Shown: positions 28,184 to 58,534, counted from the stretch's first letter. The stretch is DNA of 64,000 bases from Candidatus Latescibacterota bacterium (GCA_965219995.1 CBDCOX010000002.1:2172918-2236917); one strand, 5' to 3'. The notes: generated from the sequence alone by a model not told the origin. Made by a program: numbers and translations.

Positions 28184-29590
28184 TCAGGACCTTTCCCGTG
28201 CCAGTCCATACTTCCGGTAGAAGTGGCGGAACTGGTCGTAGCTCAGACTGAGCGATTCGGCCGCCCTGCGCTGGTTCCAGTTGGAATTGGACAACGCGCT
28301 CCTGAGCAACCCGAGCTCGAAAGCCTTGACCTGGGCGTCGAACCCGTCTCCCGGCGGCGCCGGATCTCCGCTGGTGATCTCCGCAGGCAAATCCGGGGGT
28401 TCGATGGACGTGCCCGTGGCCATGCACGCCGCGCGTTCCACTGCAAACTTGAGCTCGCGCACGTTCCCGGGCCATGGGTAGCCCTGCAGGTGTCGGAGGG
28501 CGCCGTCGGAGAACGGACGCATGGTGAGTCCCGGCACCTCCCGGACGATCTGCTCAACGAAGAACCCGGCAAGCGGCTGGATGTCTTCCCGCCGTTCGCG
28601 AAGCGGGGGAATGCGGATCACTTCGAAGCGGAGGCGGTCGTAAAGATCCTGACGAAAGCGGCTTTCGGCAATCTCACGTTCGAGATCGGCATTCGTGGCG
28701 GCAATGATCCGGACGTCCACGCTGGTGGACACGGCCCCGCCCACCCGTTGAATTTCCTGGTATTCGATGGCGCGAAGGACATTCTGCTGGAATTCGGGTG
28801 TGGTGTTGCCAATCTCGTCCAACAGCAGCGTACCGCCGTTGGCCGCTTCAAACCGCCCGGGACGGGCTTCAGTCGCTCCGGTGAACGCGCCTTTTTCGTG
28901 CCCGAAGAGTTCGCTTTCCAGCAGGTTGGCCGAAAGGGCCGCGCAGTTGACTTTAACGAACGGTCGATCGCTGCGTACTCCACCATAGTGGATTGCCGCC
29001 GCCACGAGTTCCTTGCCGGTGCCGGGTTCGCCGAGCACCAGAACCGGCCGGGGGATGGAAGCAATGCGCTGGGCCTGTTGCATGATCCTCAGCATCTGGG
29101 GACTGGCATTGACCGTCCTGTACTTCTTTCCGAATTCGTCCCGGTAGAATCGATTCTCGCGGTCCAGATCCTTCACACGGGCGTGAAGCCGCGCATTCTC
29201 TCTGAGGACGGCGAGTACCCGGTCGAGTTTCTCCAGGCTGAGTTCAAGCCGGTCCTCAATATAGAAATCCTTTTCGATAAAGTCCGATGCGCCCATGCGC
29301 AGGGCGGCTACGGCGTTCTCCACGGTACCCTTGCCAGTGAGAATGATCACCGGCATATCCGGCACGAAGTCGCGAATCTTCCGAAGGATATCCAGACCGT
29401 CCGCCTCGGCCGGTCCGAAGTCGATATCCAAAATGGCCATATCGACGTCCGAAACGTGCGCCTTCAGGTACGCGAATGCCTGACTTCCCGTTGGAAAGGC
29501 CCGCACGATCCTGCCATCCACCTGAAGGCTTCGCGTGAGCATGGCCAGTATTTCGGGCTGGTCATCGGCGACGACGATTTGCGCTTTCAT
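28184..29590 (-). CDS. sigma54-dependent response regulator (NtrC family enhancer-binding protein)
   Basis: Receiver domain (VADDQPEIL...D), AAA+ sigma54-interaction domain (GEPGTGKE..., GAFTGA), C-terminal Fis-type HTH. Confidence 0.9.
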
Positions 29591-29593
29591 GGT

Positions 29594-31288
29594 CTACTCG
29601 ATAAATTCCTCGGCCAGGGGCAGCCGCGAGGCGGACAACGGATCGCCGCTCCAGCCGATGCTGTCGGTTCCGGCGACCAGTTCGAAGTCCACCGGGAGAT
29701 CGATGCGGAATACGGCGCCCGCGCCCGGACGGCTGATCATCCGCAGGGTACCCCGGTGGGCGGAGACGATGCGCGAACAGATGCTCAGCCCGAATCCATT
29801 GCCTTTTTCCTTGGTGGAAAACCCGGGGTCGAAGATCCTGGACTGGATCTCTTCGGATATGCCCGGTCCGTTGTCTTCCACCTCGATGAATACCGACCCG
29901 CGCCTGTTGTCGTAACCGGCCTGTACCGTGACGGCGCCACGCTCATCAACGGCGTCCAGCGCGTTGAGAATCAGGTTCGTGACGGCTTCACGCAGCATGC
30001 CGGGATCGACCTTGACCTGCGGGACGTGCGGTTCGGATGCGAAGCGGAGAGCCGCGCCTCCGGTGCGGGTCGCGACGGCTTGCCTGATTTTGCCCACGAG
30101 TTGCGGAATATCCACGAGTGACGGATTCAGCGGATCCTGCTTCATGCTGCGCAGATAGGCCACCCACTGGTCGAAGATGTGTTCCTGGTCGCGAGCGATG
30201 TCTCGCAGGTCGTCGAGTACGGCGTCGTGCTTCGAAACGCTCCGAATAAGCCGGCGTGTGCGGCTCCCCACCAGACCCATCAGATTCTTGATCTGGTGCC
30301 CCCGGGTGTACAGGCTTTCTCCCACCTGTACGCGTCCCATGTCGATGAGTTCAAGAGACAGGCGCGCCAGCACCGAGGCTGCCTGCGTACCGAATTCTTC
30401 GATGATGGCGGTATACTCCTGTTCCATCTGGGCCGAACTCTTGTGACCGAAGAGAAGATGCGCCAGGTTTCTGTAGGGTAGCGCATAGTCCGGCTCGAGC
30501 TGGATGGCAATCTTGAACGCGCCCAGGGCCTGGAGGGTCTGACCTGTTTGCATGAGCAAAACACCGAGGTTATTGTGACCCGGGGCGAACAGCGGATTTG
30601 CTTCCAGCCCGCGACGGTAAACTGTGATGGCCTCGTCCATGTTTTCCGGAAGGTCGTCGAGAAAGCTGGCCAACAGGAAACAGGCGCCGTCCACGTTGTC
30701 GAAGGGCACGCCACGGTCCACGGCCTCGAGAATAGACCGAAGCGCTTCAACCGCCTGCTGCCGGCCACTCGATCCCGAGGTCGCGCTCTCGGCCCGCAAG
30801 AGCGCCAACTGCAACTGCGCCTCCAGATGGTCCGGATTCGTTGCGATTGCAGACTCAAAGGCCTGCGCCGCTCCTTCAACGCCTCCTTTCAACCGGCAGA
30901 GACCGATCTTGTAATGCAGGTCCGCCCCAATCTCCGGCGCAAGTTCCAGGCAACGCGTGAAACATGCCAGCGCGTCCTGCCAGTTGCCTTTTCTGAAATG
31001 GACCGCGCCCAGGTTGTGGCGCGCCCGTACGTTCCCTTCATCGGCCGCCAGGGCGGCCAGGTAGGCGGCCCGGGCTTTCGACAGGTCGCCCGCTTCCATC
31101 GCGTTGTCGCCGTCACGACCGCGCCGCCTGGCTTCGTCGTTCGCCGATTCCGGCAGGGTCTGTGCGATGCCGATACGGTCGGCAGCCGCGGGTCGGCTGT
31201 CGGATTTTTCGGGTCGGTTCAAATCGTTGCTCCACGATGAAACGCTAAGAAGCTGTTTCCGATGCGCCCGCGTCGTCGCCGTTTGCAT
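29594..31288 (-). CDS. cytoplasmic TPR-repeat sensor histidine kinase
   Basis: N-terminal TPR repeats; HisKA H-box and HATPase_c (NLILNALDA...GxGLGL); no TM segment; alternative start ATG 31099 (MEAGDLSKARAAYL) would remove the 44-nt overlap with the flotillin gene. Confidence 0.8.
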   Translation of the reverse strand: MQTATTRAHRKQLLSVSSWSNDLNRPEKSDSRPAAADRIGIAQTLPESANDEARRRGRDGDNAMEAGDLSKARAAYLAALAADEGNVRARHNLGAVHFRKGNWQDALACFTRCLELAPEIGADLHYKIGLCRLKGGVEGAAQAFESAIATNPDHLEAQLQLALLRAESATSGSSGRQQAVEALRSILEAVDRGVPFDNVDGACFLLASFLDDLPENMDEAITVYRRGLEANPLFAPGHNNLGVLLMQTGQTLQALGAFKIAIQLEPDYALPYRNLAHLLFGHKSSAQMEQEYTAIIEEFGTQAASVLARLSLELIDMGRVQVGESLYTRGHQIKNLMGLVGSRTRRLIRSVSKHDAVLDDLRDIARDQEHIFDQWVAYLRSMKQDPLNPSLVDIPQLVGKIRQAVATRTGGAALRFASEPHVPQVKVDPGMLREAVTNLILNALDAVDERGAVTVQAGYDNRRGSVFIEVEDNGPGISEEIQSRIFDPGFSTKEKGNGFGLSICSRIVSAHRGTLRMISRPGAGAVFRIDLPVDFELVAGTDSIGWSGDPLSASRLPLAEEFIE

Positions 31289-32756
31289 TTGCGTCGCCGG
31301 TGGCTTTGCCCAGAAACTCGGGCAACTCCAGGCCCGCCAGTTTGGCCAGTTCGTGCATTGGCGGGATGGCGCCCATCAGGCGCTGCCCGAGATTGGACAT
31401 GCCGCCCTGTCCGCCGCCGCCGTCCCAGACCATGATTTTCTCCAGGGGGAGATTCTGAATGGCTTCCGCCTGAATGCCTGCGACCTCGGTCAGACGCTCG
31501 ACGATGAGGAAGGCCGCCGCAGCCTGGTCCTTTCCTCCGCACGCGGCCACCAACTCCTTGTAACCCTCCGCCTTGGCATCCAGAATGGCCTGGGTACCCT
31601 CGGCTTCGGCTCGCTTTTGGGCGAGAATTGCGGCGGCCTCCCCCTGCGCCACCAGCGTCCTCTGCACCTTCTCTGCCTCCGCCTGTACAACCAGCTTCTG
31701 TTTTTCCGCGTCGGCCTGTACCACAATTTCGGCTCTCAACCGGGCTTCTTCCCGGAGCGCCCGGGCTTCCTCGGCCTCTTTTTCGGCCCTTTCCTGCGCC
31801 ACCCGGATCGCGCCGTCCGCCGCCTTCGCGGCCTCCTGCCCCTGTTGCCGTGCAACCTCCTCGGCCACTTTCTGCCGGGCCATATAACCGGCTTTCTTGG
31901 AATCGGCATCGGCCTCCGCCTGTACCGCTTCCGCATCCAGAGAAGAAACCATCTGGCGTTTGTTTCTGGTGGCTTCGGCCTCGCCGATCTGGGCTTCAGA
32001 TTCCAGGGCGGCCACCCGCTGGCGGCGATCCCTGGCCGCTTCGGCCTCGCCGATTTCGGCGGCCGCGTTCGCGGCCGCCACGTCGGTGCGCTGGTCCCGT
32101 TCCCGCTCGGCTACACCCACCTTGCCCATCTTCTCCTGCTCGGCCACGTCGATTGCCGCCTGGTTGATGGCTTCGGCTGCGGCCTTTTGCCCGAGAGCCT
32201 TGATATAACCGCTTTCGTCTTCTATGTCCTTGATGTTCACGTTAATCACGGCCAGGCCGATTTTTTCCATTTCGGTAGAGACCGCTTCATTGACCTTGGA
32301 CATGAATGCCTGCCGATCCTGGTTGATTTCTTCAATTTCCATCGTGGCGATCACCGCCCGCATCTGGCCGAGGATGATGTCCTGCGCCTGACTCTGGATC
32401 TGGTCGCGAGAGAGTCCCAGGAGACGAATCGACGCGTTCTGCATCACGCCCATCTGGTTTGATACGGCCGCTGTGACGGTTGTGGGAACAGACACCCGGA
32501 TGTTCTCCTGCGACAGGGCGTTGTCCAGATCGATGGGAACAACGAATGGCTCAAGATCCAGATACTCATAGTCCTGCAGGAGAGGCAGCACGAAGGCCGC
32601 GCCCCCGTGAACGCATTTTGCCGCCCCTTTTCCTGTTTTTCCGTAGACGACCAGAATCTTGTTGGACGGGCACCGCTTGTACCTCGAAATAAACGTCACG
32701 AAGAGCAGGAACACCACCAGCAGCAATATAATTGTCAATACGGTCTCGGTTGACAT
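31245..32756 (-). CDS. flotillin / SPFH (band-7) family protein (YqiK/FloT-like)
   Basis: N-terminal TM helix, SPFH domain, long Ala/Glu-rich coiled-coil (AEAAARDRRQRVAALESEAQIGEAEA...) typical flotillin. Confidence 0.85.
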   Translation of the reverse strand: MSTETVLTIILLLVVFLLFVTFISRYKRCPSNKILVVYGKTGKGAAKCVHGGAAFVLPLLQDYEYLDLEPFVVPIDLDNALSQENIRVSVPTTVTAAVSNQMGVMQNASIRLLGLSRDQIQSQAQDIILGQMRAVIATMEIEEINQDRQAFMSKVNEAVSTEMEKIGLAVINVNIKDIEDESGYIKALGQKAAAEAINQAAIDVAEQEKMGKVGVAERERDQRTDVAAANAAAEIGEAEAARDRRQRVAALESEAQIGEAEATRNKRQMVSSLDAEAVQAEADADSKKAGYMARQKVAEEVARQQGQEAAKAADGAIRVAQERAEKEAEEARALREEARLRAEIVVQADAEKQKLVVQAEAEKVQRTLVAQGEAAAILAQKRAEAEGTQAILDAKAEGYKELVAACGGKDQAAAAFLIVERLTEVAGIQAEAIQNLPLEKIMVWDGGGGQGGMSNLGQRLMGAIPPMHELAKLAGLELPEFLGKATGDANANGDDAGASETAS

Positions 32757-33052
32757 GACAATCCCTCCTCGAATGAATCTGTCACCAATGTTGAAGCTTG
32801 ATTCGTCATTATTCGGGGTCGTTAATTCGAAGTTGTGCAGAATAATAAAAGCGATTGAACTGCTGATTTCCAGGAACCTTCAGGTCACCGGACGCGAACG
32901 GAAAAAATGTCCTTCCGGACGACCCTTTCGGCCCGTTTCGAAAGTTTTCTCCACAGTGTCTGCTTGCTGGATTCTTCGATGCAAGGCAAATCGACGCAAG
33001 AGGCACAAGAACAGCGAAAAGGTTGAGTACCGTCGTCTCAGCCAAATTGCAG

Positions 33053-33658
33053 TCAGGACAACAGCGGCTCGACCTCCAGCGTTGTCGTATCCACCACGCG
33101 AAGAACCCTGACCGGTGTCTTTGCGGAGATGGACATCCCGTTTTTGCCGCGGGCCGATACGTAGGCGACCGCCCCGCTCTCCATCACCCGGACCTGTCCG
33201 TTCCCGCATTGGGGGATGTCCAGATATACCTCACCAGAGGTTCCCACGCACGTATCCAGATTGGCGTTTCCAGTCTCGGTGAGCTTCCGGACATTGTGGA
33301 AGAAATAGGCAACGACCCCCATGCCTGCACTGCCCCAGACAAACGCGTAAAACACTGCCGTCCGAACGTCCAGACCTCTCTCCAGATACAGAGCTCCCGC
33401 CCATCCGAACAACATGCCAAAGGCGATCAGAGACCTGATAGACAGCAGTTTGAATGCCGCCACCGTGCCGTCTCCCGGTCCGTCGTTCAATTCGGGACCC
33501 GCGTCGCCAAGTTCCGCGTCGCCATCAATGCCGGCGTCGGACCCGCCCAGGCCAAAAAGGGCTGCCAGGAGTTGCCAGACAAAAAACGCGCTGAAAAACG
33601 CCGCCAACACGTAGAACGCCTGGTTGAGGACGCTCAGATCTGTCCACCATCCATCCAT
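33053..33658 (-). CDS. NfeD/YqiJ-family membrane protein (flotillin partner)
   Basis: Multi-TM N-terminus and C-terminal OB-fold-like soluble domain; upstream of the flotillin gene as in the E. coli yqiJK pair. Confidence 0.65.
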   Translation of the reverse strand: MDGWWTDLSVLNQAFYVLAAFFSAFFVWQLLAALFGLGGSDAGIDGDAELGDAGPELNDGPGDGTVAAFKLLSIRSLIAFGMLFGWAGALYLERGLDVRTAVFYAFVWGSAGMGVVAYFFHNVRKLTETGNANLDTCVGTSGEVYLDIPQCGNGQVRVMESGAVAYVSARGKNGMSISAKTPVRVLRVVDTTTLEVEPLLS

Positions 33659-33876
33659 GTCCGGCTCCTTTCCCGGGATCGTCCTCGTGTTGCACGCGGC
33701 CGGATCATCTGAAACGCCGCCGTGCTGCGAAATGTGACATAGAATGTACTTCGCGTCAATACAAATTCGCGACGGTTTTCGCCGGAGTTCTGACCTTCAT
33801 TGCGGTCGAAGCCCAGGGTGCCCCCCGCCAAATCCGTTCCTCGAACTTGTGCGCCGGGACTCCGGGGTCCACGTGT

Positions 33877-34452
33877 TCACGAGGGAACCAGCCCCCGCTT
33901 TCTGAATTCACCCTTCAATTGAAATCTTCCTCGGTTGAGCCAGGTCTTGACCGTGCCCATCGGAATCTGCAACTCCCTGGTAATTTCCTCGTAGGACCGG
34001 TCTCTCACGTAGCGCATCCAGAGTACTTCCCGATACCTGGACGGCAATGACCGAATGCTCTTCCTGACCAGGTCCCGGTGCTCGTTTCGCTGGACGGACA
34101 GTTCAGGGTTCTCGCCTGGTGCAGGCCTGCGTGTGGCGTCGGCAAGAGCAGCCGGATCCTCCGTTGTCTGAATCCATTTTCGCCGTACCTGCTGTTTGCG
34201 AAAATGGGACTTGTGTACGTTGAGCGCGATCTGGGTGAGCCACGTGGCAAAGGCTGCCTCCCCGCGGTACGAGCCGAGGGCCAGAAATGCCCGCAGAAAG
34301 GCAGTCTGCATCAGGTCCTGCGCGGTATCGGGATCGCTCGTTCTGCGAACCATCGTGGCGTAGACCTGTTCGTGGCAGGCTTTGTAAAGGTCTCCGAAGG
34401 CAGCCGCGTCTCCCGCGACTGCTTTCCGGATCAGATACCGTTCGTTTTCCAT
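33877..34452 (-). CDS. ECF-type RNA polymerase sigma-70 factor
   Basis: Region 2 (FGDLYKACHEQVYATMVRR...DLMQTAFLRAF) and region 4 HTH (SYEEITRELQIPMGTVKTWLNRGR). Confidence 0.85.
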   Translation of the reverse strand: MENERYLIRKAVAGDAAAFGDLYKACHEQVYATMVRRTSDPDTAQDLMQTAFLRAFLALGSYRGEAAFATWLTQIALNVHKSHFRKQQVRRKWIQTTEDPAALADATRRPAPGENPELSVQRNEHRDLVRKSIRSLPSRYREVLWMRYVRDRSYEEITRELQIPMGTVKTWLNRGRFQLKGEFRKRGLVPS

Positions 34453-34483
34453 TAGCGGGATATCCTTTCGAAAGGACGGTCGA

Positions 34484-34659
34484 TTACCTGGAGTCGCTGG
34501 TAAGCAGCCGGTAACCCACGTAAATCAGGACAATCGAAACTGACAATTTAAGGAGCAGGAAAAGGATTTCCAGAGACACGCCGATCAGCTTGATCGCTTC
34601 GAAGATGCCGAGGTACGCGCCGATGCCGATCAGGATGATGCCGAGAATCTTCGCGAACA
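34484..34659 (-). CDS. small hydrophobic membrane protein (58 aa), not in supplied ORF track
   Basis: Hand-translated MFAKILGIILIGIGAYLGIFEAIKLIGVSLEILFLLLKLSVSIVLIYVGYRLLTSDSR; AAGGAAA RBS 6 nt upstream of ATG 34659; sits between PspB-like genes and the ECF sigma gene. Confidence 0.4.
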
Positions 34660-34780
34660 TGGGATTTCCTTTCTTGTACCGATTTATTGCAGTTAGCGAA
34701 AATCCAGCCAGGGAATCGGGACAAACCGCGAGACCCTTTCAGCCGGGGTTTGCACAAGCGTAAAACCGTCTTAAGGCCAA

Positions 34781-35158
34781 TCAGCCACCTGGATTCTTGG
34801 CTTCCGATCGGCTCAGTTTGTCGTCCATCGAAATGAGTACGTCCTGAACGTCAGTGACCCTCCGCTCCAGATCGTTCAGGCGGGCATTGAACGCTTCCGT
34901 CTGCTGCGCGCCGATTCCGCGGGACTGGCCCCCGGCACGGCGTTTCAGGAAGATCACGACGCTGCCGAGGGTGAAAACTGACACGGCACCGATTACGGAG
35001 ATCGCCAGAATTCCAAGCGCGATATCCATGGCGAATCTCCCGAAGCCGAAATGGCGCGTCGGTGCCAGAGGGTCGCCGAAGAGAAACTTCAGCGTTGCCA
35101 TGCCCAGGAGAAACAGAACAAAGATGATGGCGGCCTTCGTCGCGAATTCTCGTGTCAT
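34781..35158 (-). CDS. PspB-like membrane protein, paralog 1 (2 TM + C-terminal conserved helix)
   Basis: C-terminal FNARLNDLERRVTDVQDVLISMDDKL motif shared with two neighbouring paralogs and pattern-similar to PspB/PspC leucine-zipper helix; AAAGGAG RBS 8 nt before ATG 35158. Confidence 0.65.
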   Translation of the reverse strand: MTREFATKAAIIFVLFLLGMATLKFLFGDPLAPTRHFGFGRFAMDIALGILAISVIGAVSVFTLGSVVIFLKRRAGGQSRGIGAQQTEAFNARLNDLERRVTDVQDVLISMDDKLSRSEAKNPGG

Positions 35159-35189
35159 CAGGATCACTCCTTTCTATCGCAGCCCAAAC

Positions 35190-35765
35190 CTATACTTTCG
35201 TTCGGTCCCTTCTAAGCCCCTCGTCCAGGCTGATGATGACCTCCTGGAGATCGTTCAAGCGCTGGTCAACGGTATCCAGCCGCTCTTCCATTCGTCTCGC
35301 CCGGTCCGGACTCATCCCCTTGCCCTCCCGCTTTTTCCTGAGGTGTATATAGCTCACCAGACCCCCGGCGAAGATGATCAGGCAGATTCCGATGCCGATT
35401 TCCATTGCGATACCAAGACCGGTTCCGGATCGAACCAACTCGAGACGGTCCGCGACGCCTTCAAGTTTCCTGGCGGCCGATTCTAATCGCCGCTGGTTGT
35501 CCAGGAGTAGACTCACGCCTTCGTCCGACAGACCACTTGCACTACCGACCTCGGTCGGTCCCGGTATATAATCAGCATCCGGCAGCACGTTCCATCGGTC
35601 AGACGTGAAGGCCCAGATTGCGAACCCGACGGCCGCCACCGCCAGGAAGATCCCAACCGTTGATCCGCTCGGCTTCTTGTTACCGGGGGTCATCAGGTAG
35701 ACTGAATACCCGCCCGCAACCATCAGCAGGCAAAGGGCTAACGCCAGTTCCAGTATCCAGCTCAT
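35190..35765 (-). CDS. PspB-like membrane protein, paralog 2
   Basis: N- and mid-protein TM segments, C-terminal MEERLDTVDQRLNDLQEVIISLDEGL motif; GAGGAGGGA RBS. Confidence 0.65.
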   Translation of the reverse strand: MSWILELALALCLLMVAGGYSVYLMTPGNKKPSGSTVGIFLAVAAVGFAIWAFTSDRWNVLPDADYIPGPTEVGSASGLSDEGVSLLLDNQRRLESAARKLEGVADRLELVRSGTGLGIAMEIGIGICLIIFAGGLVSYIHLRKKREGKGMSPDRARRMEERLDTVDQRLNDLQEVIISLDEGLRRDRTKV

Positions 35766-35832
35766 CGTGTTCCCTCCTCTTGTTTCCCGGACTTATGCAA
35801 ATCAAGCGGATAAATTCATACCTGTCAGAGAT

Positions 35833-36207
35833 TTACACGACCTTTCTCAGCTTGCTTGCAGTGGCGTCCGGTCCGGCGGCTCCCGGGTCTGCCTTCTTGA
35901 GGACACCAGACAGTCTCGTGGTCCTCAGTGTCTTGTCGACACTTCCGGATACGCCGCTCAACTTCAGTTCGCCGCCTGCGCCCCTGACAGTCTTCAGACC
36001 GCTGATCAACTCTCCAATCATGGCAGCGCCGACAAACTTCAATTTTGACAGGTCGACCACGACCGTCCGGGCCCCGCTGTTCGCCAGGTTTCGTATTTTG
36101 CGTCGCAGCGGCGCCACTTCCGACCTGGCGACGGGGTCGCCGCTGACGGAGACAATGACCGCTCCGCCCTGAATGCGTTCGCCGACGTCAATGCGCCTCG
36201 AATTCAT
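35833..36207 (-). CDS. STAS-domain anti-sigma-factor-antagonist-like protein (non-phosphorylatable)
   Basis: MNSRRIDVGERIQGGAVIVSVSGD...VVDLSKLKFVGAAMIGEL: SpoIIAA fold, but the conserved Ser/Thr position carries Ala (GAAM instead of DSSG); AGAGGGA RBS before ATG 36207. Confidence 0.7.
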   Translation of the reverse strand: MNSRRIDVGERIQGGAVIVSVSGDPVARSEVAPLRRKIRNLANSGARTVVVDLSKLKFVGAAMIGELISGLKTVRGAGGELKLSGVSGSVDKTLRTTRLSGVLKKADPGAAGPDATASKLRKVV

Positions 36208-36298
36208 CGTACAATCCCTCTTGTTTTTGTGTAAATCCGGTCCGCGTGGGACAGTCCGGTGATTCCTGCCATTGGATTTCATCCGATTCCGGCGTCCC

Positions 36299-36514
36299 TT
36301 ACGACGTTTCCCCCGGGCTTCCTCGATCGAGCTTTTCGTCGATCGCGATCATGATTTCCTGGATATCGGTAAGCCGCCGATCCAGGTCGTCCAGCCGGGC
36401 GTTCAATCGATCCTCGACTTTGCCGGGCACGGAACCCTTGGTCTGTCGATCCACATATTTCAGTACAGCCGACGCAAGAACAATCAGCGCAACGCCAACA
36501 CCGACTTCAAACAT
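36299..36514 (-). CDS. PspB-like membrane protein, paralog 3 (71 aa, single TM)
   Basis: MFEVGVGVALIVLASAVL TM then VEDRLNARLDDLDRRLTDIQEIMIAIDEKL; GGAGGGA RBS. Confidence 0.7.
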   Translation of the reverse strand: MFEVGVGVALIVLASAVLKYVDRQTKGSVPGKVEDRLNARLDDLDRRLTDIQEIMIAIDEKLDRGSPGETS

Positions 36515-36540: not shown

Positions 36541-37170
36541 TCAGAGTTCATCCACTGGTTTTGCCTGGCGTTTTTCCTGACCGCGTTCAATTTCAGGAAA
36601 ATAGTACACGACGAGTCCGGATTCGGAGACGCGCACCTCGGCGCTGCCTTTCTCGCCCAATGTGCGCAGGATCTCCTCCGCCTTCTCTACGGTCATCCGC
36701 CCATCGGTTGCGGCTTCCAGCACGGTGAGGCTGCCTCCCTTTTCGCGGGCGAGCCTGAGCAGGCGATGCTGATATTGCGCATATCGCTTCCGGTCGGCCG
36801 ATTCGTGCGCCGTGCGTCCCGCAAGCCTGAATACAAGCGCGCCGGTCAGGGCCAGGATAAACAGCAACGCCTCCGGGTGGAACGAGCGCTCGACAATGCC
36901 GATGACGAAGGGGACAATCGCGGCGAATACACACAAGATCGCGGCAGCTTTCAGGAAGTGTCCGAGGACGTATCGCATGTCGCAGCTCCAATTGATGGCC
37001 ATGTCCGAAATCCGAGTCGACAGACCCGCGGACCGTGCACGGCAAGCCTGACGCGGGTATTGCCGTCCATCGCCGCCCTTACGGGCCGCCTCCACGGCCT
37101 TTTTCGCATCGCGTACGGCATTCCTGACTTCATACGCGATCTCGTCCAGAATTTTCTGTACCTCACGCAT
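36541..37170 (-). CDS. membrane protein translationally coupled to pspA (function unknown; LiaI/PspM-like role inferred)
   Basis: Start ATG overlaps pspA stop (ATGCGTGA, 8-nt overlap); amphipathic N-terminus, 2-3 TM helices, C-terminal soluble domain. Confidence 0.6.
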   Translation of the reverse strand: MREVQKILDEIAYEVRNAVRDAKKAVEAARKGGDGRQYPRQACRARSAGLSTRISDMAINWSCDMRYVLGHFLKAAAILCVFAAIVPFVIGIVERSFHPEALLFILALTGALVFRLAGRTAHESADRKRYAQYQHRLLRLAREKGGSLTVLEAATDGRMTVEKAEEILRTLGEKGSAEVRVSESGLVVYYFPEIERGQEKRQAKPVDEL

Positions 37171-37840
37171 CGGACTTGCGCATCCTGTCTTTCAGGGCCT
37201 GCAGTTCCTCTTCCACGGTGTTCTGCCGTTCCAGCTTTTCGAATGAGTCTTCGAGCGAAGGATCTTCTCCCGCAATTTCGGCGTGCGCATGGGCCTCTGC
37301 TTCTTCGGTCTCCACCCGATTCCGGAAGCGCTCAAAGCTCGAAAACGCGTCGTCGCCGACACCCGAAAGTCCCTGGGCGATCTGCTTTCTCGCCTGAGCG
37401 GCGCGACGCCGGGCGATAAGAGCGCCCTGACGGGTGCGTGCCTCGTCCAGTTTGGATTTGAGTTGCGTTAATTGCTTCTTGAGCTGATCGGAGGTCTTGT
37501 GGCTTTCGTCGAAAGCGACTTCCAGATCCAGGGCGGCTCTTTCAACCGCGGCTTTTCGTTCCAGCGCGCGCCGCGCCAGGTCGTCTTCGCCGGACTCGAC
37601 GGCCAGCTCGGCCTTCTTCTGCCAGGACTCGATCTGGTCCGTCTTGTCCAGCAATTGACGCTCAAGGCGTTTTTCGTTGGCAACGGCGGTGCCGACGGAC
37701 GCGGTTGCCTTGTTGACGGCCTCTTCCATTTCAAGGATCATCTGCCGGATCATCTTTTCCGGATCTTCGGCGCGATTCAGAAGATCGTTGATGTTGGCCT
37801 TGACGATGTCCGCCATGCGGGAGAAGATTCCTTTGGCCAC
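37163..37840 (-). CDS. pspA: phage shock protein A / IM30 / Vipp1 family protein
   Basis: MAKGIFSRMADIVKANINDLLNRAEDPEKMIRQMILEMEEAV... canonical PspA N-terminus, coiled-coil throughout. Confidence 0.9.
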   Translation of the reverse strand: MAKGIFSRMADIVKANINDLLNRAEDPEKMIRQMILEMEEAVNKATASVGTAVANEKRLERQLLDKTDQIESWQKKAELAVESGEDDLARRALERKAAVERAALDLEVAFDESHKTSDQLKKQLTQLKSKLDEARTRQGALIARRRAAQARKQIAQGLSGVGDDAFSSFERFRNRVETEEAEAHAHAEIAGEDPSLEDSFEKLERQNTVEEELQALKDRMRKSDA

Positions 37841-37931
37841 TGTCTTTCTCCTTTCTATCGTAGGCTTCTTGACCCCACGAGGGTGGAAAAATCCGATTTC
37901 CTGTAATTATTCAAGGTCCTGCCGACATTCC

Positions 37932-37947
37932 TTGCAAGTATCGTACC
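37932..37947 (-). promoter_or_regulatory. putative sigma54 (-24/-12) promoter for pspA operon
   Basis: Minus-strand GGGTACG-ATAC-TTGCA vs consensus TGGCACG-N4-TTGCW, ~95 nt upstream of pspA ATG; locus encodes a sigma54-dependent activator. Confidence 0.45.
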
Positions 37948-38215
37948 CGTTTTACAAAATAGGCGATCCCGATGTTAAATGTCGGTATTTACTGGCTTTA
38001 TACTGACACGTGAAATCATGTCACCAATAGAAGTTGGTGAAAAACGCCGTACACAAGGCGAAAACGACCGGATCGAATGGCCGTGGAGTGCCTGATCATG
38101 AACGGAGCCGGCTTGTCTTTTGGGGACAAATGGCGTAATATCTGGGGTGTTCTGCCGGTTGAACCCGACCGGTGCGGTCGCTGTTTCATTCGAGTCTCCG
38201 CGTTGGACCATAGTC

Positions 38216-39337
38216 ATGAAAAACTGTCGCCATCTGCGTCTGTTCAGTGTCGCACTCTGCGTGGTCATGTTGCTTGCCAGCCCCCTTGCCGGGCTCTCGC
38301 TTGTACACAAGGTCCGGAAAGGGGAATCTCTCTGGTCCATTGCCCGGCAGTGGGGAACGAGCATCCGGGAGATCAAGCGAATCAACAAGCTGCGCACCAA
38401 CAACGTCTATCCGGGCCAGGTGCTACGCCTGGGCGCGCGGATCGTCAAATACGACGCGGCGAACGGTCCGTACTACTGGCGAAAGCCGAAGGCGTCAAGG
38501 CAAAGGCACCGGAACTATTCCGAAAGGGCGCGCTCCGCCCCGAGTGTGGATTATCGCCGGGCCCAGGCCCTTTTGCGCGCCTTCGACAACGAGATTCTCG
38601 CCAAGGCGCCCAAGAGAAGAAGGAAACCGCTGAAGGGCTGGTGGATCGTGCTCGACCCGGGGCACGGCGGCATCGATCCGGGCGCGATCGTTTCCAATTT
38701 GACGGGCAAGAAACGACGGGTCTACGTGGTCGAAGACGAATACGTGTATGATATTGCGCTGCGAATGTACAAGAAACTCCGGCTCCTGGGCGCGGAGGTG
38801 ACACTCACGGTGATCAGCCCCAATCATCTGATTCGGGAAAACCAAACGGCCAAAATTACATTTGTCCACGAAAAGAACGAAGTCTATAACGATGAACGGT
38901 ACAACCGGAGGAATTCGGAGAAGGTACGCCCCAGGAGCGCCAATATCTCACAGCGCGTCCGGGTTGCAAACCGCTTCGTCAAGCGGGCGCGCGGGGGCAG
39001 GAGCCTGTTTGTCTCGGTACACGCGGACAACACTCCCGGACGATCCAGGGGGCCCCTGGCGATCTATCATAAACGGCGGGGCAGGGTTGACAGCCGGTCC
39101 AGGGCGTTCGCCCGTGTCATGCGTTCGGTCCTGCACCGGCGGGACCTTCCGGCTCGGGTTCAGGGGCGGAACCTTGCGGTATTGCGGAACAATCTGGCCC
39201 ACGCGGAGATTCTGGTCGAGGTCCACAACGTCCACTATACGCACGACGCCTATCAGATCCGGTACCATGAACATCGGGAGCGCGACGCGGATCGGCTGGT
39301 AAACGGCATCCTGGCGTATGCCAGAAAACGTCGATGA
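38216..39337 (+). CDS. LysM-domain N-acetylmuramoyl-L-alanine amidase (Amidase_3 family)
   Basis: Signal peptide MKNCRHLRLFSVALCVVMLLA; LysM (HKVRKGESLWSIARQWGTSIREIKRIN); amidase motifs LDPGHGGIDPGA...SVHADN. Confidence 0.8.
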   Translation: MKNCRHLRLFSVALCVVMLLASPLAGLSLVHKVRKGESLWSIARQWGTSIREIKRINKLRTNNVYPGQVLRLGARIVKYDAANGPYYWRKPKASRQRHRNYSERARSAPSVDYRRAQALLRAFDNEILAKAPKRRRKPLKGWWIVLDPGHGGIDPGAIVSNLTGKKRRVYVVEDEYVYDIALRMYKKLRLLGAEVTLTVISPNHLIRENQTAKITFVHEKNEVYNDERYNRRNSEKVRPRSANISQRVRVANRFVKRARGGRSLFVSVHADNTPGRSRGPLAIYHKRRGRVDSRSRAFARVMRSVLHRRDLPARVQGRNLAVLRNNLAHAEILVEVHNVHYTHDAYQIRYHEHRERDADRLVNGILAYARKRR

Positions 39338-44269: not shown

Positions 44270-47200
44270 TCAGTCGTCGGCCGACTGATGGGTTGCGGCC
44301 TGGCGGGAAAACGCGGCGCTGACGATCCTTTGCAGAACGGCGCGCAGGTCGTCCAGCAGCGTGTAACAAATGGGCACGAGCAGCAGGGTCAGAAACGTGG
44401 ATGCCAGCAACCCGCCCATCAGGGTCCGGCCAAGCGGCGCGTAGGGAATCCCGATGAGATTGCTGTTGCCCAACGCCATTGGCAACAGGCCGCAAACCGT
44501 GGTAAACGTGGTCATCAGGATCGGGCGAAACCGGTTGTGCCCGGCCTCCAGAATAGCCTCGGTCCGGTTCATGCCCTCGTGACGCATTCGGTTGATCATA
44601 TCCACCAGGACAATGGCGTTGTTGACGACGACGCCGATCAGTACAATCATGCCGATGTTGGCCATCATGTCCATTGGCGTGCCGGTCAGATAGAGCGTCC
44701 AGTACACCCCCAGGAACGAAAACGGAATGGAAAACAACACTGAAAACGGTAGAACCACGGACTCGAACAACACCCCCATCAGGAGAAAGACGCACGTTAC
44801 TGCCATCACCACCGCAAAAATCGTCTCGTTGTCCGACTCCCGGAACCTGGCGAAGCGTTCGCCCTTGTTCCACGAATATCCCCGCGGCATGTGGAAACCG
44901 GCCATCGCCCGGTCGATTTCGGCGTAAAGACCCTTCAGATCATCCTTTGTCGTAAACGCCTTCACCGCCAGACGCGTCTTGCCGTCTTCCCTCCGGATTC
45001 TCCCGCGCCCCGGCGTCACCTTGAAAGTGGCCAGTTCGGACAGGGGGATCTCCTCTCCGGACGCCGACCTGAACATGAAACTCTTCAGGTGATGCAGCGT
45101 CTGCCGGTCCGCCTCTTCCAGGTACAGTCGCGTATCCACCTCGCGCTCACCGGACTGGTACCGGGGAAGGCTGACCCCCTGCATCGTGAAGGCCAGGGTC
45201 CGCGCCACGACCTGCGGCGAAATCCCGTAGCGCCTCGCGCGGACTCGATGAATTTGGACCTGCACCTCGTCGGTGGATCGTTCCAGGTCGGAATCCACGT
45301 TCACGACCGACGGAATCTGCCGGAGCCGGCGCTCGACTTCCGTCACGAGGCCGGCCAGCACCTCGGTGTCGTCTCCGTAGAGATAGACCGAAACCGAAGG
45401 ATCCCCGCCGCCGCGGGCGCGGCTCTCCACGCCGATCCGCACCCCCACGTACTTGGGCATGTCCTTCTTCAGATCAGCGATGACCTCCGTACGGGCCATC
45501 GTGTTGTCCACCGGAACGCCAAGACCCGCCCGCAGGTTCTTGTACGCGACGTACCACCACGCCTCATTGGGGTTCGTATCCAGAAAGATCTCAAAATTCC
45601 CACGGGTCTTGCGGAACCAGGACCGGATGGTCCGGATGCCGTAGGCCTCTCGCTTTGAATTCAGAAACTCCTCCACCTCGTTCATCAATTCAAAGGTCTC
45701 GTACGTCGTAAAGTCGCGGGGGGTCCGAATATTGATGTCGATATCGTTGATATTGCCACGAGAGGAATCCGACCGTTTCATTTTGTCCGCCGGAATTGCA
45801 ATGGTCGCAAAAACCGCCAGGAGGATCAATATGGCGTCCCGGCGGTGGCTCAACGCCCAGTTCAGCACCCGCCCGTAGCGCATCCGCGCCCAGCCGATGG
45901 ACTTCGAATCCGGCTTCACCCGGCTGCCCCCGAAACGCACCGAAGCCAGCGGGATGATTAACAACGCCACGAACAACGACCCCACCAGCATCACGATGAC
46001 GGGGACACCCATGCGAGAGAGATAGAACGTCATCCCCACGTTTCCGGTCATCAACATCAACGGCAGAAAGACCACGACCGTGGTCAGCGTGGCCATGGTT
46101 ATCGCCATGGCAACTTCGCTGGCGCCCGCCACGGCGGCAGGCCTGGGGGATTCGCCCTTCTCGCGCCGCCGGTAGATGTTCTCCAGAATCACGACGGCGT
46201 TGTCGACAACCATCCCCACACCCACCATCAAACCCATCATCGTCATGAGATTCAGAGACCACCCGGAAAAATAAAGCACCGTTACGGTTATCATGGCGCA
46301 CAGCGGTATCGACAGCGTGATGATGGCCGTCATACGAAGGACGCGCAGGAAGAACAGAAGAACCAGCGCGGCGAACAATCCGCCCCAGAGGCCCGTATTC
46401 CTTAAATTGGCAACGGATGCCCGGATGAGTTCGCCCTGGTTGAAAAACACATTGAACTGGATCTTGCCTGCCACGGCGGATCCGGTCTCAATCTCCGCGA
46501 GCGCCGCTGAAACACGGTCGCACACCGTGGCGATATCGGCCCCCGACTCGGCCTTGATACCCACGGAAGAAGCCGGTTGGCCGTCGATTCTCTGATACCA
46601 GCTTCGGGCCGGGATATCGTAGACGACGTCGGCGACTTCCCGCAATCTGACGACGCCCTGGCGCGAACTTACAGGGATATTACCGACCTCGTCGAGACTG
46701 CGGTACCGCGCCAGGGAACGGACGTAGAATTTCTTGGTGCCTTCGTTGACGTAACCGCTCTTGAGCGCGAAATTGTCGTTCTGCAGGCTTTGTACCATCT
46801 CATAGATATTCACGCCCCTCGCCATCAGTTGCTCGCGGTTGATTTCAATCATTACCTCTTTGGGGTCGGCGCCCCAGAGTTCCACTCTGGCCACTCCTTC
46901 GATGCGTTCAAGGGGCCGCTGAACGTGCGTTTCCAGGAAACGGTACACGTCCACGATCGTGGAGTCCAGGGCCGCGCCGATCCACATGATGTTCCAGCCC
47001 TCGTCATTATACTTCCAGACGAAGACATTGTCCCGCACCTCCTCAGGGAGTTCCGGCTTGAGCCGGTCCAGTTGATCCCTCAACTGGTTGTACGCCAGGG
47101 TCATGTCGGCATCCTGCTGAAACCGGAGGGGGGCGCCCACGCCGCGGCTGTCCGTGTACGTCCGGACCCGTTCGATACCCTTGATGGTCCGCAGACGCTC

Positions 47201-54833: not shown

Positions 54834-56606
54834 TCATTTCTTTTGCGGACCCCGGGAATCTCCATTGCGTGTTTCGTCTCCCCGGTCTGAAGGCGTCGTT
54901 CCGCCGGCGGCTTCGGCGTCCGAATCGGACTGCGCGACGGCGCCCAGAAAGTCGCCCTTAAGGCTTTTCGACGCGATTTCCGCGAAGTCGGTCTGAGGAT
55001 AACTGTCCATCAGCCGCTGGTAATAGACCCGGGCGGTGTCCGGGTTTTCCAGACGGTTCGCGTAGGTCCAGGCGATGGTATAGAGGGCTTTAGCCGCAAC
55101 GGGGCTGTTCGGGTGATCCGACGAGAGTTGTTTGAGGACCTTCAGGAATCCGGACGGCGGAGCCCCCTCGCTGATCAGCGTTTCGGCCTCGAGAAAACTG
55201 GCTTTCGCCCTGGCGTCTTCTTCCAGCGACTTCGCCAGCCGCTGACGGGCGTTCACCGCGTAGGGATTGACGGGATACGCGTCGATCAGTTGCCGGAACG
55301 TCTTTTCGGCAGCATCCTGGTTTTTCAGGCTGTCCGCGTAAATCAGGCCGATGGCATAGAGTGCCTTTGGCGCCAGTTCGGCATCCAGACTGTCGGCGAT
55401 TCCGTAGGCTCTGCGGTAGGTCGCGAGCGCGGAGTCGGGTTCCGAAAAGTTGAACAGATACATCTCGGCCACATTGAAGAGCGCTTTCAGACCCTTCTTC
55501 TTGCCTTTGGCGGCCGCCTTCTGGTAACGAGCCAGCTTGCCAAGGTCCTTTTCCCGGTCTCGGGCCGCCCTGCCCGCATCGGACCCGGGATTTTCTTTTC
55601 GGGCGCTGGCGAAGAGTTCCTGCGCCTTTTCCAAATTCCGGTGCGTCCGCTGCGCCACCATCGCCAGGCGATAGTAAGCCTCGGCGCTGTACTCGGTCTT
55701 CGGGTTGTCCTTGATGACTTCATTGTAGATCTCATCGGCGGTTTCCTGCCGGCCCATCAGATGATATGCGTGCGCCCGTCTGAGATGCACGTTCGGCTCA
55801 TAGGATCTCAGGCTCTTGATCTTCAGAATGCGGTCGTACTCCGCCAGGACTTCGTCCAGTTTCCCCTGGCGCTCCAGAATTCGCCCGATCTGAAGGCGGG
55901 TCTCGTAATTGACTTTGTTTTTCGGCTTTGATTTAAGAACGCGCCTATACGCCGTAAGGGCTTCTTCGTACTGTTCCAGCCGAAACCTGGCGTTCCCGAT
56001 ACCCTCCCATATTTTCGCGGCGAGTCCTCGAGGCCTGCCCTTGAGCAGTTGTTGATATGCGTCGATGGCGGCGGCGTGATCGCCGGCTTCCGATTCCAGT
56101 TCCGCAAGCGCGAGCCGGGCCTTTCCCGAGAATTGCGGATCACCGCTTTCACCCACCTTCGCCAGCAAGGGCCGCGCTTCTTCGGGCCTTCCGACGGCCC
56201 AGAGCGAAAGCCCCTTCCAGTAGAAGCCTTCGGTAAGCAGCAGGCTCTGAGGAAAATTGTCCTGCAGCTCCTGGAACTTGGTGAGTGCATCCCGGTAGCT
56301 GCCCCGCCAGTAGAAGGCCTTGCCGATGAGCAACAGGCTGTCGTCAACCCACTTGCTTTCAGGATGCCGGTCGAGGACGATGGACGCCTTTCTTATGGCC
56401 CGCATGTAGAAATCGCGGTACCGGAATACCATCTGTCGGCTCTTCTGGCCGCTGGCGGCCACGTTCTCGGCTTCCTCTCTTTTGCGCTCGGCCTCCCGGT
56501 ACTGTTTCCGGGCGTTATAGAATGTGTTGTAATAGACACACCCGGAAATCAGGCTCACGGCGAACAGGACGACGCAGGGGATGAGGATTTTCCGGTTCGA
56601 ATTCAT
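54834..56606 (-). CDS. TPR-repeat lipoprotein (590 aa)
   Basis: Lipoprotein signal [23 protein letters not shown]; >10 TPR repeats; start overlaps carB stop (ATGA). Confidence 0.75.
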   Translation of the reverse strand: MNSNRKILIPCVVLFAVSLISGCVYYNTFYNARKQYREAERKREEAENVAASGQKSRQMVFRYRDFYMRAIRKASIVLDRHPESKWVDDSLLLIGKAFYWRGSYRDALTKFQELQDNFPQSLLLTEGFYWKGLSLWAVGRPEEARPLLAKVGESGDPQFSGKARLALAELESEAGDHAAAIDAYQQLLKGRPRGLAAKIWEGIGNARFRLEQYEEALTAYRRVLKSKPKNKVNYETRLQIGRILERQGKLDEVLAEYDRILKIKSLRSYEPNVHLRRAHAYHLMGRQETADEIYNEVIKDNPKTEYSAEAYYRLAMVAQRTHRNLEKAQELFASARKENPGSDAGRAARDREKDLGKLARYQKAAAKGKKKGLKALFNVAEMYLFNFSEPDSALATYRRAYGIADSLDAELAPKALYAIGLIYADSLKNQDAAEKTFRQLIDAYPVNPYAVNARQRLAKSLEEDARAKASFLEAETLISEGAPPSGFLKVLKQLSSDHPNSPVAAKALYTIAWTYANRLENPDTARVYYQRLMDSYPQTDFAEIASKSLKGDFLGAVAQSDSDAEAAGGTTPSDRGDETRNGDSRGPQKK

Positions 56607-58534
56607 GCGTTTTCACCCGCCTCCTTCCCGTGGAACTCCTGCAGAGAACGAATCCGGACCGCGCCGTTTTTCTTCAGGGACTCGATGCCGGACACCGCGG
56701 CCGAAGCGCCCGCCAGCGTGGTCGTGTACGGGATGCCGTATTGCAGCGTTGCCTGGCGAATCCTGTGATCGTCCGCCTGCGCGGCTTCTCCCGCCGGGGT
56801 GTTGACCATCAGGACGATCGACCTGTTCTTGATGGCGTCCAGAATATTGGGGCGGCCCTGCTGGATCTTGAGGATGGGTTCGGCGAGGATATCGTGCGCC
56901 ATCAGCCGGGCGTGGGTTCCACGGGTGGCGACAATCCGAAACCCGAGTTCCGCCAGCCGCCGGGCAACGGGTATCACGGCATCCTTGTCCCGGTCGTTGA
57001 CCGAGATGAAAACCGCGCCCGACGTGGGAAGCCGTACCCCTGCGCCGAACTGCGCCTTGTGGAAGCTCAGACCGAAGTCCGTATCGATGCCCATGACTTC
57101 GCCGGTGGACTTCATTTCGGGCCCCAGCAGGGTATCCACGCCCGGGAACTTGGCAAACGGCAAAACGGCTTCCTTTACAGCAATGTGATCGAAGACGACT
57201 TCGCCTGTCAACCCCTGTTCCCTGAGGGATCGGCCGACCATGGCCCGCGCCGCCACTTTCGCCAGCGGAATGCCGATCGTCTTCGAGACAAACGGCACGG
57301 TGCGGCTTGCCCGCGGGTTGACTTCGAGAATGTAGACCTGGTTGTCCTGAAGGGCGAACTGCACGTTCATCAACCCCACGACGTTCAGGGCGCCGGCCAG
57401 CGCGTGGGTGTGGGAACGGAGTTCATCGAGGTGTTCCACGGAGATGTCGTAGGGCGGCAGCACGCAGGCGCTGTCGCCGGAATGCACGCCCGCGCTCTCG
57501 ATATGCTGCATGATGCCTCCGATCACAACCGTCGTATCGTCCGCGACGGCGTCCACGTCGAACTCGTGCGCGTCTTCGAGAAAACGGTCGATGAGAATGG
57601 GATGCTCGGGCGAGGCCTGGATTGCCTTTTCCATGTAGCTGAGAAGCGCATTCCGCTCGTAGACGATGACCATGGCGCGCCCGCCGAGGACGTACGAGGG
57701 CCGTACAAGCACGGGATAGCCGATGTCGTCGGCCACGGCAACGGCTTCGTCCACGCTGGTGGCGGTTCCGTTATCGGGCTGCGTGATGCCGAGTTGCCTG
57801 ATCAGAGCGCCGAATCGCTTTCGGTCTTCGGCCAGATCGATGCTGTCCGGAGACGTCCCGATGATGTTGACGCCGCCGCGTTCCAGGTCGCGCGCGAGAT
57901 TCAGGGGAGTTTGCCCGCCAAGCTGCACGATCACGCCGTCGGGCTGTTCCAGATGCGCGATATTGAGCACGTCTTCGGCCGTGAGCGGCTCGAAATAGAG
58001 TTTGTCGGAGGTGTCGTAATCGGTGCTGACGGTTTCGGGGTTCGAGTTGACCATAATGGTCTCATAGCCGTCTTCCTTGAGCGCAAAAGCCGCATGCACG
58101 CAGCAGTAGTCGAACTCGATCCCCTGCCCGATGCGATTCGGGCCGCCGCCCAGGATCATGACTTTGGGCCGATCCGATCGCGTGGCCTCGTTTTCGTCTT
58201 CATACGTGGAATAGTGGTACGGCGTATACGCCTCGAACTCGGCGGCGCACGTATCGATGGTCTTGTAGACCGCGTGTATATTCATTTCCTTTCGGAGGGC
58301 CCTGACGGTCCATTCGCTGGTCGTCCACAGGTGGGCGAGCTGACGGTCGCTGAACCCGTATCGCTTGGCCTTGATCAGGTCGGCGCGATCCACACGGGTC
58401 CGCAGATCTTCGAGCGTTCGTTGTTTCCGGTGCATAGCGGCTGCCGGACTCGTTCGGGCGCCTGGAATCACGCGACGAGGTCCGCGAGCTCCTTTTCGTA
58501 GTCGGTGATCTGACGCAGGTTCTCGAGAAACCAC
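56603..58534 (-). CDS. carB: carbamoyl-phosphate synthase large subunit, C-terminal segment (frame-shifted relative to N-terminal segment)
   Basis: Homology to CarB second half begins at ...[19 protein letters not shown]...[14 protein letters not shown]...; first plausible ATG at 58435 ([11 protein letters not shown]); ORF frame open to 58534. Confidence 0.8.

Follow-up and report, generated by a model that had tools for sequence, protein, structure and literature searches.

Gene content of the pspA locus

The window, i.e. the whole 64,000-nucleotide stretch of Candidatus Latescibacterota DNA analysed here, harbours a gene of the PspA/IM30 family on its minus strand (Table 1). It is followed in the same orientation by genes which encode, in this order, a 209-residue membrane protein, a 71-residue protein, a STAS protein, two proteins composed of transmembrane segments and a coiled coil, a 58-residue membrane peptide, an ECF sigma factor, an NfeD-like protein, a flotillin/Band-7 protein, a histidine kinase and a response regulator. 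The divergent gene located 5' of pspA codes for a LysM/Amidase_3 protein. Against the model TIGR02977 the PspA of the window reaches 185.5 bits, which is below the equivalog cut-off of 242.95, and an exact-protein lookup retrieved no record for it. Its reading frame opens with a GTG where its relatives have an ATG at the same place. The start codon is preceded by the ribosome binding site GAAAGGAG at 37855..37848, and just 5' of the latter RNAalifold predicts a small leader hairpin (37879..37859; CGTGGG...CCTACG) which contains one covarying pair among close relatives (CG:8 / UA:6). An Rfam scan of positions 37700-38300 revealed no family and produced one sub-threshold chance match only.

Neither the 209-residue nor the 71-residue protein shows a significant match in Pfam or NCBIfam. 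Their genes adjoin pspA in almost all related loci which carry the promoter element described below, including compact clusters made up of pspA, the genes for these two proteins, the kinase and the regulator. Close relatives possess the genes of the variable cluster middle, whereas the compact clusters do without them. The cluster of the most divergent clade is confined to pspA, the genes of the 209-residue and the 71-residue protein, the kinase gene and the regulator gene, and it is this compact five-gene set by which we define the core module. Three small membrane proteins of the window cluster (36299-36514, 35190-35765 and 34781-35167) share, subsequent to their transmembrane segments, a C-terminal motif which roughly reads RLxxLxxRLxDxQExxIxxDxxL and whose layout is PspB-like by eye only. 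A match to PspB or PspC was obtained for none of the small cluster proteins in Pfam or NCBIfam, even at E values of up to 10.

The histidine kinase consists of TPR repeats, an H-box and an ATPase domain and displays no evident membrane segment. As its open reading frame and the 3' end of the flotillin gene share 44 nt (31245-31288), its actual start is probably situated downstream of 31288. The kinase gene ends 4 nt before the start of the regulator gene and the two are conserved together in the same loci, an arrangement which marks the kinase as the predicted cognate partner of the regulator. Within the regulator a receiver domain (Response_reg, residues 5-112) is followed by an AAA+ domain (Sigma54_activat, E = 9.7e-63), which possesses Walker A and Walker B motifs as well as a GAFTGA motif at residues 234-239, and by a divergent helix-turn-helix of the Fis type (HTH_8 for the C-terminal fragment, 20.1 bits versus a cut-off of 22, E = 5e-4). 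This succession of REC, AAA+ and HTH is that of NtrC-family two-component regulators, and the closest solved structure is that of full-length NtrC4 from Aquifex (4L4U). All named equivalog models score far below their cut-offs. In all homologues of the regulator GAFTGA, or GAYTGA, is intact. The original prediction had placed an activator of the NtrC type at this locus, and such a protein is indeed encoded within the same-strand cluster (29590..28184), its gene lying about 7.6 kb 3' of the end of pspA.

Since enhancer-binding proteins whose GAFTGA motif is intact act through sigma-54 (PMC3162934), we infer that rpoN is present in the genome. An open reading frame with an RpoN box was found neither in the window nor in 80 related loci (about 1.5 Mb in total), and a Pfam scan of the remaining large open reading frames identified other proteins only.

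Table 1. Positions of the genes and of the predicted regulatory features at the pspA locus of the window
Feature	Position	Strand	Evidence or remark
Candidate distal UAS dyad CCGGTCGTTTTCGCCTT	38055..38071	minus	Conserved block in the closest-clade alignment A1
Candidate proximal UAS dyad ACGGCGTTTTTCACCAA	38034..38050	minus	1 mismatch to TGGYS-N5-SRCCA
AT-rich spacer between putative enhancer and promoter	37949..38033	minus	Contains the palindrome of the original prediction
Sigma-54 type -24/-12 promoter element GGGTACGATACTTGCA	37933..37948	minus	GG 37947-37946, GC 37935-37934
Predicted 5' untranslated leader, about 82 nt	37841..37922	minus	Predicted start near 37922
pspA, PspA/IM30 family, 225 aa	37163..37840	minus	PF04012, E = 8.8e-48; GTG start
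209-aa membrane protein	37170..36541	minus	Overlaps the stop codon of pspA
71-aa TM plus coiled-coil protein	36514..36299	minus	3' of the 209-aa gene
Variable cluster middle (STAS to flotillin/Band-7)	31245..36282	minus	Open reading frames and Pfam matches
ECF sigma factor	34452..33877	minus	Pfam match
Soluble TPR-repeat histidine kinase	29594..31288	minus	Pfam TPR, HATPase_c; H-box GHQIKNLM
NtrC-type response regulator, enhancer-binding protein	28184..29590	minus	Pfam Response_reg, Sigma54_activat, AAA_lid_14

The -24/-12 element and its conservation

Direct reading of the minus strand from 37948 to 37933 yields GGGTACGATACTTGCA, in which the GG and GC dinucleotides are separated by exactly 10 bases within a TGGCAC-N5-TTGCW-like context. 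Compared to TGGCACG-N4-TTGCW the element contains two mismatches, namely a G instead of T at position 1 and a T instead of C at position 4, and its 3' edge is found 93 nt 5' of the GTG start codon of pspA. The original prediction had rightly recognised this element on the minus strand and the correct spacing of its two dinucleotides, yet its coordinates (37932-37947) are off by one base. The distance of about 95 nt to pspA which it had given agrees well with the measured value, while the ATG it had assumed as the start codon is that of the relatives. If the usual sigma-54 geometry applies, transcription would start near 37922, i.e. 12 nt 3' of the C within GC.

With an approximate weight matrix for sigma-54 sites, modelled on published compilations, the element achieves 13.1 bits, making it the top intergenic site of the window. 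In the overall ranking it is second to TGGTACAAAGCCTGCA (14.0 bits; 46782-46797, minus strand), a sequence inside an AcrB-type transporter gene which probably matches the matrix by chance. Five matches to the consensus with at most two mismatches are present in the window versus 8.4 expected, and two sites reach at least 13 bits versus 1.7 expected from simulated sequence. The probability of encountering such a site on the correct strand within the 200 nt 5' of pspA amounts to about 0.003. Since the motif occurs in the window at chance level, it proves nothing by itself, for which reason we made use of comparative data. The counts given above are just what would be expected if the match were a chance occurrence devoid of promoter function, and it is the related loci which bear on this explanation.

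The comparison set comprises 80 loci which encode relatives of the window PspA and which were collected by a scan with one genome per species. The closest of them (98-90% PspA identity) belong to metagenome-assembled genomes labelled Candidatus Latescibacterota, although some that are no less close bear the label Gemmatimonadota. Both phylum labels occur, for instance, among L003, L007, L011, L052 and others whose PspA is 91-93% identical to that of the window, and one short contig among the close loci is labelled Rhodospirillaceae. Such inconsistent labels on equally close genomes indicate that the labels are unreliable at the phylum level.

In all 59 Latescibacterota- or Gemmatimonadota-labelled loci for which upstream sequence is available a GG-N10-GC element is present on the pspA strand, 64-139 nt 5' of the pspA start. 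One further contig (L029) begins 46 nt before pspA and thus provides no upstream sequence; its regulator gene lies 3' of pspA in the same orientation. The element is retained down to about 61% PspA identity, and its scores range from 9.7 to 17.7 bits, compared with controls which average about 3 bits and have their 95th percentile at about 9. Between clades the flanking sequences are unalignable, and yet the element persists. In the alignment of the closest clade (A1) the element and the ribosome binding site stand out as invariant blocks, with GG, ACG and TTGC showing no variation within the former. The 40 distinct versions of the element give the consensus TGGCACnnnCnTTGCA (TGGCAC-N5-TTGCA), although choosing the top site of each region shifts the resulting consensus towards the matrix. 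The GG, the A at position 5, the TT, the G and the C never vary among these versions, many of which are a perfect TGGCAC-N5-TTGCA. The constant location of the element is independent of this selection bias. With its G at position 1, its T at position 4 and its 13.1 bits, the element of the window ranges among the weaker versions.

Clearly, high scores are concentrated at this very place. Among the 39 sites of at least 15 bits detected in about 1.5 Mb of related loci, corresponding to about 3 Mb when both strands are counted, 33 are the pspA element. The further high-scoring sites in related loci (L010, L039, L042, L069, L070) are isolated and mostly intragenic. A search of the cluster for other sigma-54 promoters or dyad pairs which might form a wider regulon returned none that was convincing. 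In 20 pspA loci of the Bacteroidota/Ignavibacteria/Kapaibacteria type the scores range, two marginal matches excepted, from -2.5 to 5.8 bits.

It is this conservation across related loci which lifts the element beyond chance. In spite of the window counts, chance occurrence retains next to no probability, as the element occupies the same position in each of the 59 loci despite diverged flanks, accounts for 33 of the 39 top-scoring sites and is coupled to upstream dyads at a fixed distance (see below). We regard this explanation as effectively refuted by the comparative sequence data. To the reading that 37948..37933 constitutes the core of a functional sigma-54 promoter we assign a probability of about 0.8.

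Upstream dyads and the cluster-encoded regulator

Anchoring the upstream regions of all loci on the -24 element reveals two, sometimes three, tandem dyads 5' of it. They follow the pattern TTGGTG-N5-CACCAA or, in a GC-rich clade, TGGCG-N5-CGCCA. In 56 of 60 loci we found a dyad which departs from TGGYS-N5-SRCCA by at most one mismatch and whose offset from the element is fixed, the background rate for any position being 0.23 per 230 nt. The offsets fall into three classes (-101/-123, -90/-112 and -117/-148), the first two of which differ by one helical turn, and the copies are 21-22 or 31 bp apart, corresponding to two or three helical turns. In the window the proximal dyad ACGGCGTTTTTCACCAA begins 101 nt 5' of the element (-100 to -104 in its class A relatives), and T90, C92 and ACCAA of this dyad are invariant in alignment A1. 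The centre of the distal dyad CCGGTCGTTTTCGCCTT, a degenerate copy of TTGGTG-N5-CACCAA which deviates from TGGYS-N5-SRCCA by two mismatches, is 21 bp away from that of the proximal one, and in the class A loci a distal dyad recurs about 123 nt 5' of the element. Scanning the window, whose GC content is 61%, with the dyad pattern gives 79 sites with at most one mismatch. In GC-rich DNA the pattern is low in information, and hence it is only the conserved position which makes the dyads meaningful. We consider the tandem dyads at 38071..38034 the likely enhancer. The dyad sequence TGGYS-N5-SRCCA is here specific to the pspA-linked regulator family.

The original prediction had tentatively sought the enhancer in a palindrome (GTGAcatgattTCAC / CACGTG) situated 40-60 nt further upstream of the element. 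Such a palindrome is present at 38024..38007, although its dyad arms (38024..38010) are 62-76 nt 5' of the element. The palindrome is not conserved and does not represent the enhancer, since even L001 and L010, whose PspA proteins are 98% and 92% identical to that of the window, have lost its right arm. It is embedded in an AT-rich spacer. The 80 nt 5' of the element have a GC content of 38% versus 61% in the window. In all of the 58 loci compared the GC content of the spacer is below that of the respective locus (on average 36% versus 57%). Matches to the IHF consensus with no or one mismatch occur in the spacers of many relatives, the best one in the window having two mismatches. The spacer may contain a bend or a site of the IHF/HU type. 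We would like to note that a perfect 8-nt inverted repeat (CCGACATT / AATGTCGG at 37922-37929 and 37978-37985) flanks the -24/-12 element. It was set aside since the anchored sequences show a weakened version in the nearest relative and none in others.

With the exception of the ribosome binding site, the -24/-12 element, the dyads and the AT-rich spacer are the only blocks conserved in all clades. This bears upon the possibility that pspA is mainly transcribed from a promoter of the sigma-70 family, served by the housekeeping sigma factor or by the ECF sigma factor of the cluster, with the -24/-12-like sequence being conserved for some other reason or constituting a minor second promoter. An ECF sigma factor gene is indeed part of the cluster in many relatives, and the psp operon of Yersinia possesses an additional sigma-70 promoter (PMC3041696). 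The compact clusters, however, retain the -24/-12 element and the dyads while they are devoid of the ECF gene. Moreover, a scan of positions 37841-38215 identified no sigma-70-like pair of hexamers on the pspA strand, although its E. coli-type consensus may not be that of this phylum, so that a real promoter could have been missed. Taken together, we judge predominant transcription from a sigma-70-type promoter to be decidedly improbable. The -24/-12 element, by contrast, very probably drives pspA and, as a predicted operon, at least the genes which follow it in the same orientation.

Of the 59 loci which carry the element, 49 encode the kinase and the regulator 3' of pspA in the same orientation, the regulator gene being 2.6-8.6 kb away from the pspA start. 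From the remaining ten loci the regulator is missing, nine of them being cut by contig ends and one, L048, genuinely lacking it. Thus, element and regulator go together in 49 of 50 loci with enough downstream sequence, while the regulator is absent from all 20 loci which lack the element. Furthermore, the type of half-site tends to follow the helix-turn-helix sequence of the regulator. SYDQFRH(F/L)YRKY is found together with TGGTG/CACCA, while TYDRFRHLLRKH (TYDRFRH) is accompanied by TGGCG/CGCCA. This trend, which links the regulator to the dyads, is suggestive albeit confounded by phylogeny. As judged from these comparisons, the local regulator probably acts through the upstream dyads.

Conversely, a genuine sigma-54 promoter might be activated by some other enhancer-binding protein encoded elsewhere, e.g. 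one of the PspF type without a receiver domain, in which case the kinase and the regulator of the cluster would control other targets. In the window 7.6 kb lie between promoter and regulator gene, L048 keeps the element in the absence of a local regulator, and our search for alternative activators covered the local 64 kb. In addition, the AAA+ core of the regulator scores marginally best against the PspF model, although such cores are very similar to each other. Yet the close association of element and regulator just described and the correspondence between half-site and helix-turn-helix type are at variance with an external activator, as are the compact clusters, in which the pair is situated as close as 2.6-3.6 kb to the pspA start and in the same orientation. 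Hence, we regard activation from elsewhere as improbable and retain the cluster-encoded regulator as the probable activator. L048 (OZ240239.1) and L045 contain a weaker -24/-12 element and degenerate dyads 5' of pspA, and no kinase or regulator is encoded in the downstream sequence examined (the full 10.7 kb in the case of L048). In the genomes of L048 and L045 the regulator may have moved elsewhere.

Proposed mechanism and relation to known systems

The mechanism which we propose from these features is the following. RNA polymerase containing sigma-54 would bind to the GG-N10-GC element as a closed complex. In response to an inducing signal, presumably membrane or envelope stress, the TPR histidine kinase would phosphorylate the receiver domain of the regulator at Asp55, whereupon the latter would oligomerise on the tandem dyads (38071..38034), the centres of which would be about 120 and 140 bp 5' of the predicted start site. 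By looping over the AT-rich and probably bent spacer, the regulator could contact sigma-54 via its GAFTGA loops. ATP hydrolysis would then open the promoter, and transcription would begin near 37922. In the compact clusters kinase and regulator genes are placed directly behind pspA and its partner genes, which implies that the system is probably positively autoregulated.

The Psp/IM30 system, which protects membranes, is ancient and widespread, but its regulation is understood in only a few model lineages. These are the enterobacteria (PspF together with sigma-54), Bacillus (LiaRS) and the mycobacteria (ClgR). Control of pspA by sigma-54 is known in enterobacteria and has been predicted in Desulfovibrio (PMC3041696, PMC4641369). 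Two broad surveys of Psp systems either do not analyse transcription factors in detail or state that control of the PspF type is documented for Enterobacteriaceae only, and a sigma-54-dependent two-component arrangement for pspA is not described in them (PMC11237479, PMC9239133). A literature search of incomplete coverage for Latescibacteria in conjunction with sigma-54 or rpoN, and for PspA in conjunction with a TPR kinase, yielded nothing relevant, and a prior description is possible.

The locus resembles the PspF/pspA system of Escherichia coli, Yersinia and Salmonella in several respects. In both cases a PspA/IM30 gene is located behind a -24/-12 promoter, two activator sites (putative ones in the window) are found at about 80-145 bp from the known or predicted transcription start with a bendable or IHF-type spacer in between, the activator is an AAA+ protein with a GAFTGA motif and a Fis-type helix-turn-helix, and small membrane proteins are encoded beside pspA. 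The parallel to PspF-dependent transcription drawn in the original prediction is consequently sound as far as function, i.e. a sigma-54 promoter in front of pspA, is concerned. It does not extend to the type of activator, which in the window has a receiver domain and a kinase partner and is not encoded divergently. PspF is devoid of a regulatory domain, whereas the regulator of the window carries its receiver domain at the N-terminus and is accompanied by a partner histidine kinase. DVU2989 of Desulfovibrio vulgaris, the predicted activator of pspA in this organism, likewise lacks such a domain and differs from the window regulator in this respect. Against the PspF equivalog model TIGR02974 the regulator scores 343.1 bits, below the cut-off of 443.55, with only the AAA+ core being aligned. 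Trp56 of PspF, which Elderkin et al. reportedly identified in 2005 as a residue contacting PspA, corresponds to Ser207 in the regulator according to the offsets obtained from the comparison with solved structures. While pspF is divergent from pspA, the activator gene of the window lies downstream on the same strand and the divergent position is occupied by the LysM amidase gene. PspB and PspC of the enterobacterial psp system have no family match in the window cluster. Finally, the -12 element contains GC in the window, whereas a GT variant has been reported for proteobacterial psp promoters (PMC3041696).

With NtrB/NtrC (glnAp2) and with ZraSR, AtoSC and NtrC1/NtrC4 of Aquifex the system shares the REC-AAA+-HTH architecture and the adjacent histidine kinase, the tandem dyads of 15-17 bp which are spaced by two or three helical turns and located upstream at distances above 100 bp, as well as the probable autoregulation. 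It differs from them in its target, a Psp-like membrane-stress cluster instead of nitrogen, zinc or acetoacetate genes, and in the sensor part of the kinase, which here is a cytoplasmic TPR array. LiaRS of Bacillus subtilis is comparable in that a two-component system encoded in the cluster induces a gene of the PspA family (liaIH/LiaH; PMC9239133). LiaR, however, is of the NarL type and operates with the housekeeping sigma factor, the membrane-bound LiaS is subject to control by LiaF, and neither sigma-54 nor an AAA+ activator is involved. By its architecture the window system is classified as an NtrC-type two-component activator and not as one of the PspF type.

A more far-reaching and rather doubtful idea is that the locus represents a two-component variant of the phage-shock response, in which the TPR kinase reads the state of PspA or its small membrane partners, thus replacing the inhibition of PspF by PspA, and drives the sigma-54 activator. 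If this were the case, the activator would induce pspA and, by read-through, its own genes, and Latescibacterota and their relatives would combine a Lia-like signalling logic with a Psp-like sigma-54 promoter.

The regulatory map as a whole, comprising promoter, enhancer dyads, spacer, leader and a candidate kinase/regulator pair, is a prediction from sequence whose individual parts are textbook, and it provides an uncultured phylum with a complete and testable cis-regulatory description. The map points to a control of pspA by sigma-54 which is either older or has been reinvented more often than thought, here with a different kind of activator, and it offers a clean training example for the prediction of sigma-54 promoters and enhancers outside Proteobacteria.

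Two further observations concern other parts of the window. A conserved dyad block is present at 38112-38141, some 40 nt 5' of the candidate distal UAS dyad. It reads TTTGTCC-nn-AAAAGACAAG on the minus strand and CTTGTCTTTTGGGGACAAA on the plus strand, and AAAAGACAAG recurs in a second clade. The block overlaps a weak sigma-70-like pair of hexamers (TTGTCT-N17-TAATAT) which faces the divergent LysM amidase gene. It could be the promoter or operator of this gene or, alternatively, a third regulatory site. Ultimately, the large chain of carbamoyl-phosphate synthase is encoded by two open reading frames on the minus strand (58468-59916 and 56603-58534) which are in different frames and overlap by 67 nt, reflecting either a genuinely split carB gene or a frameshift in the assembly.
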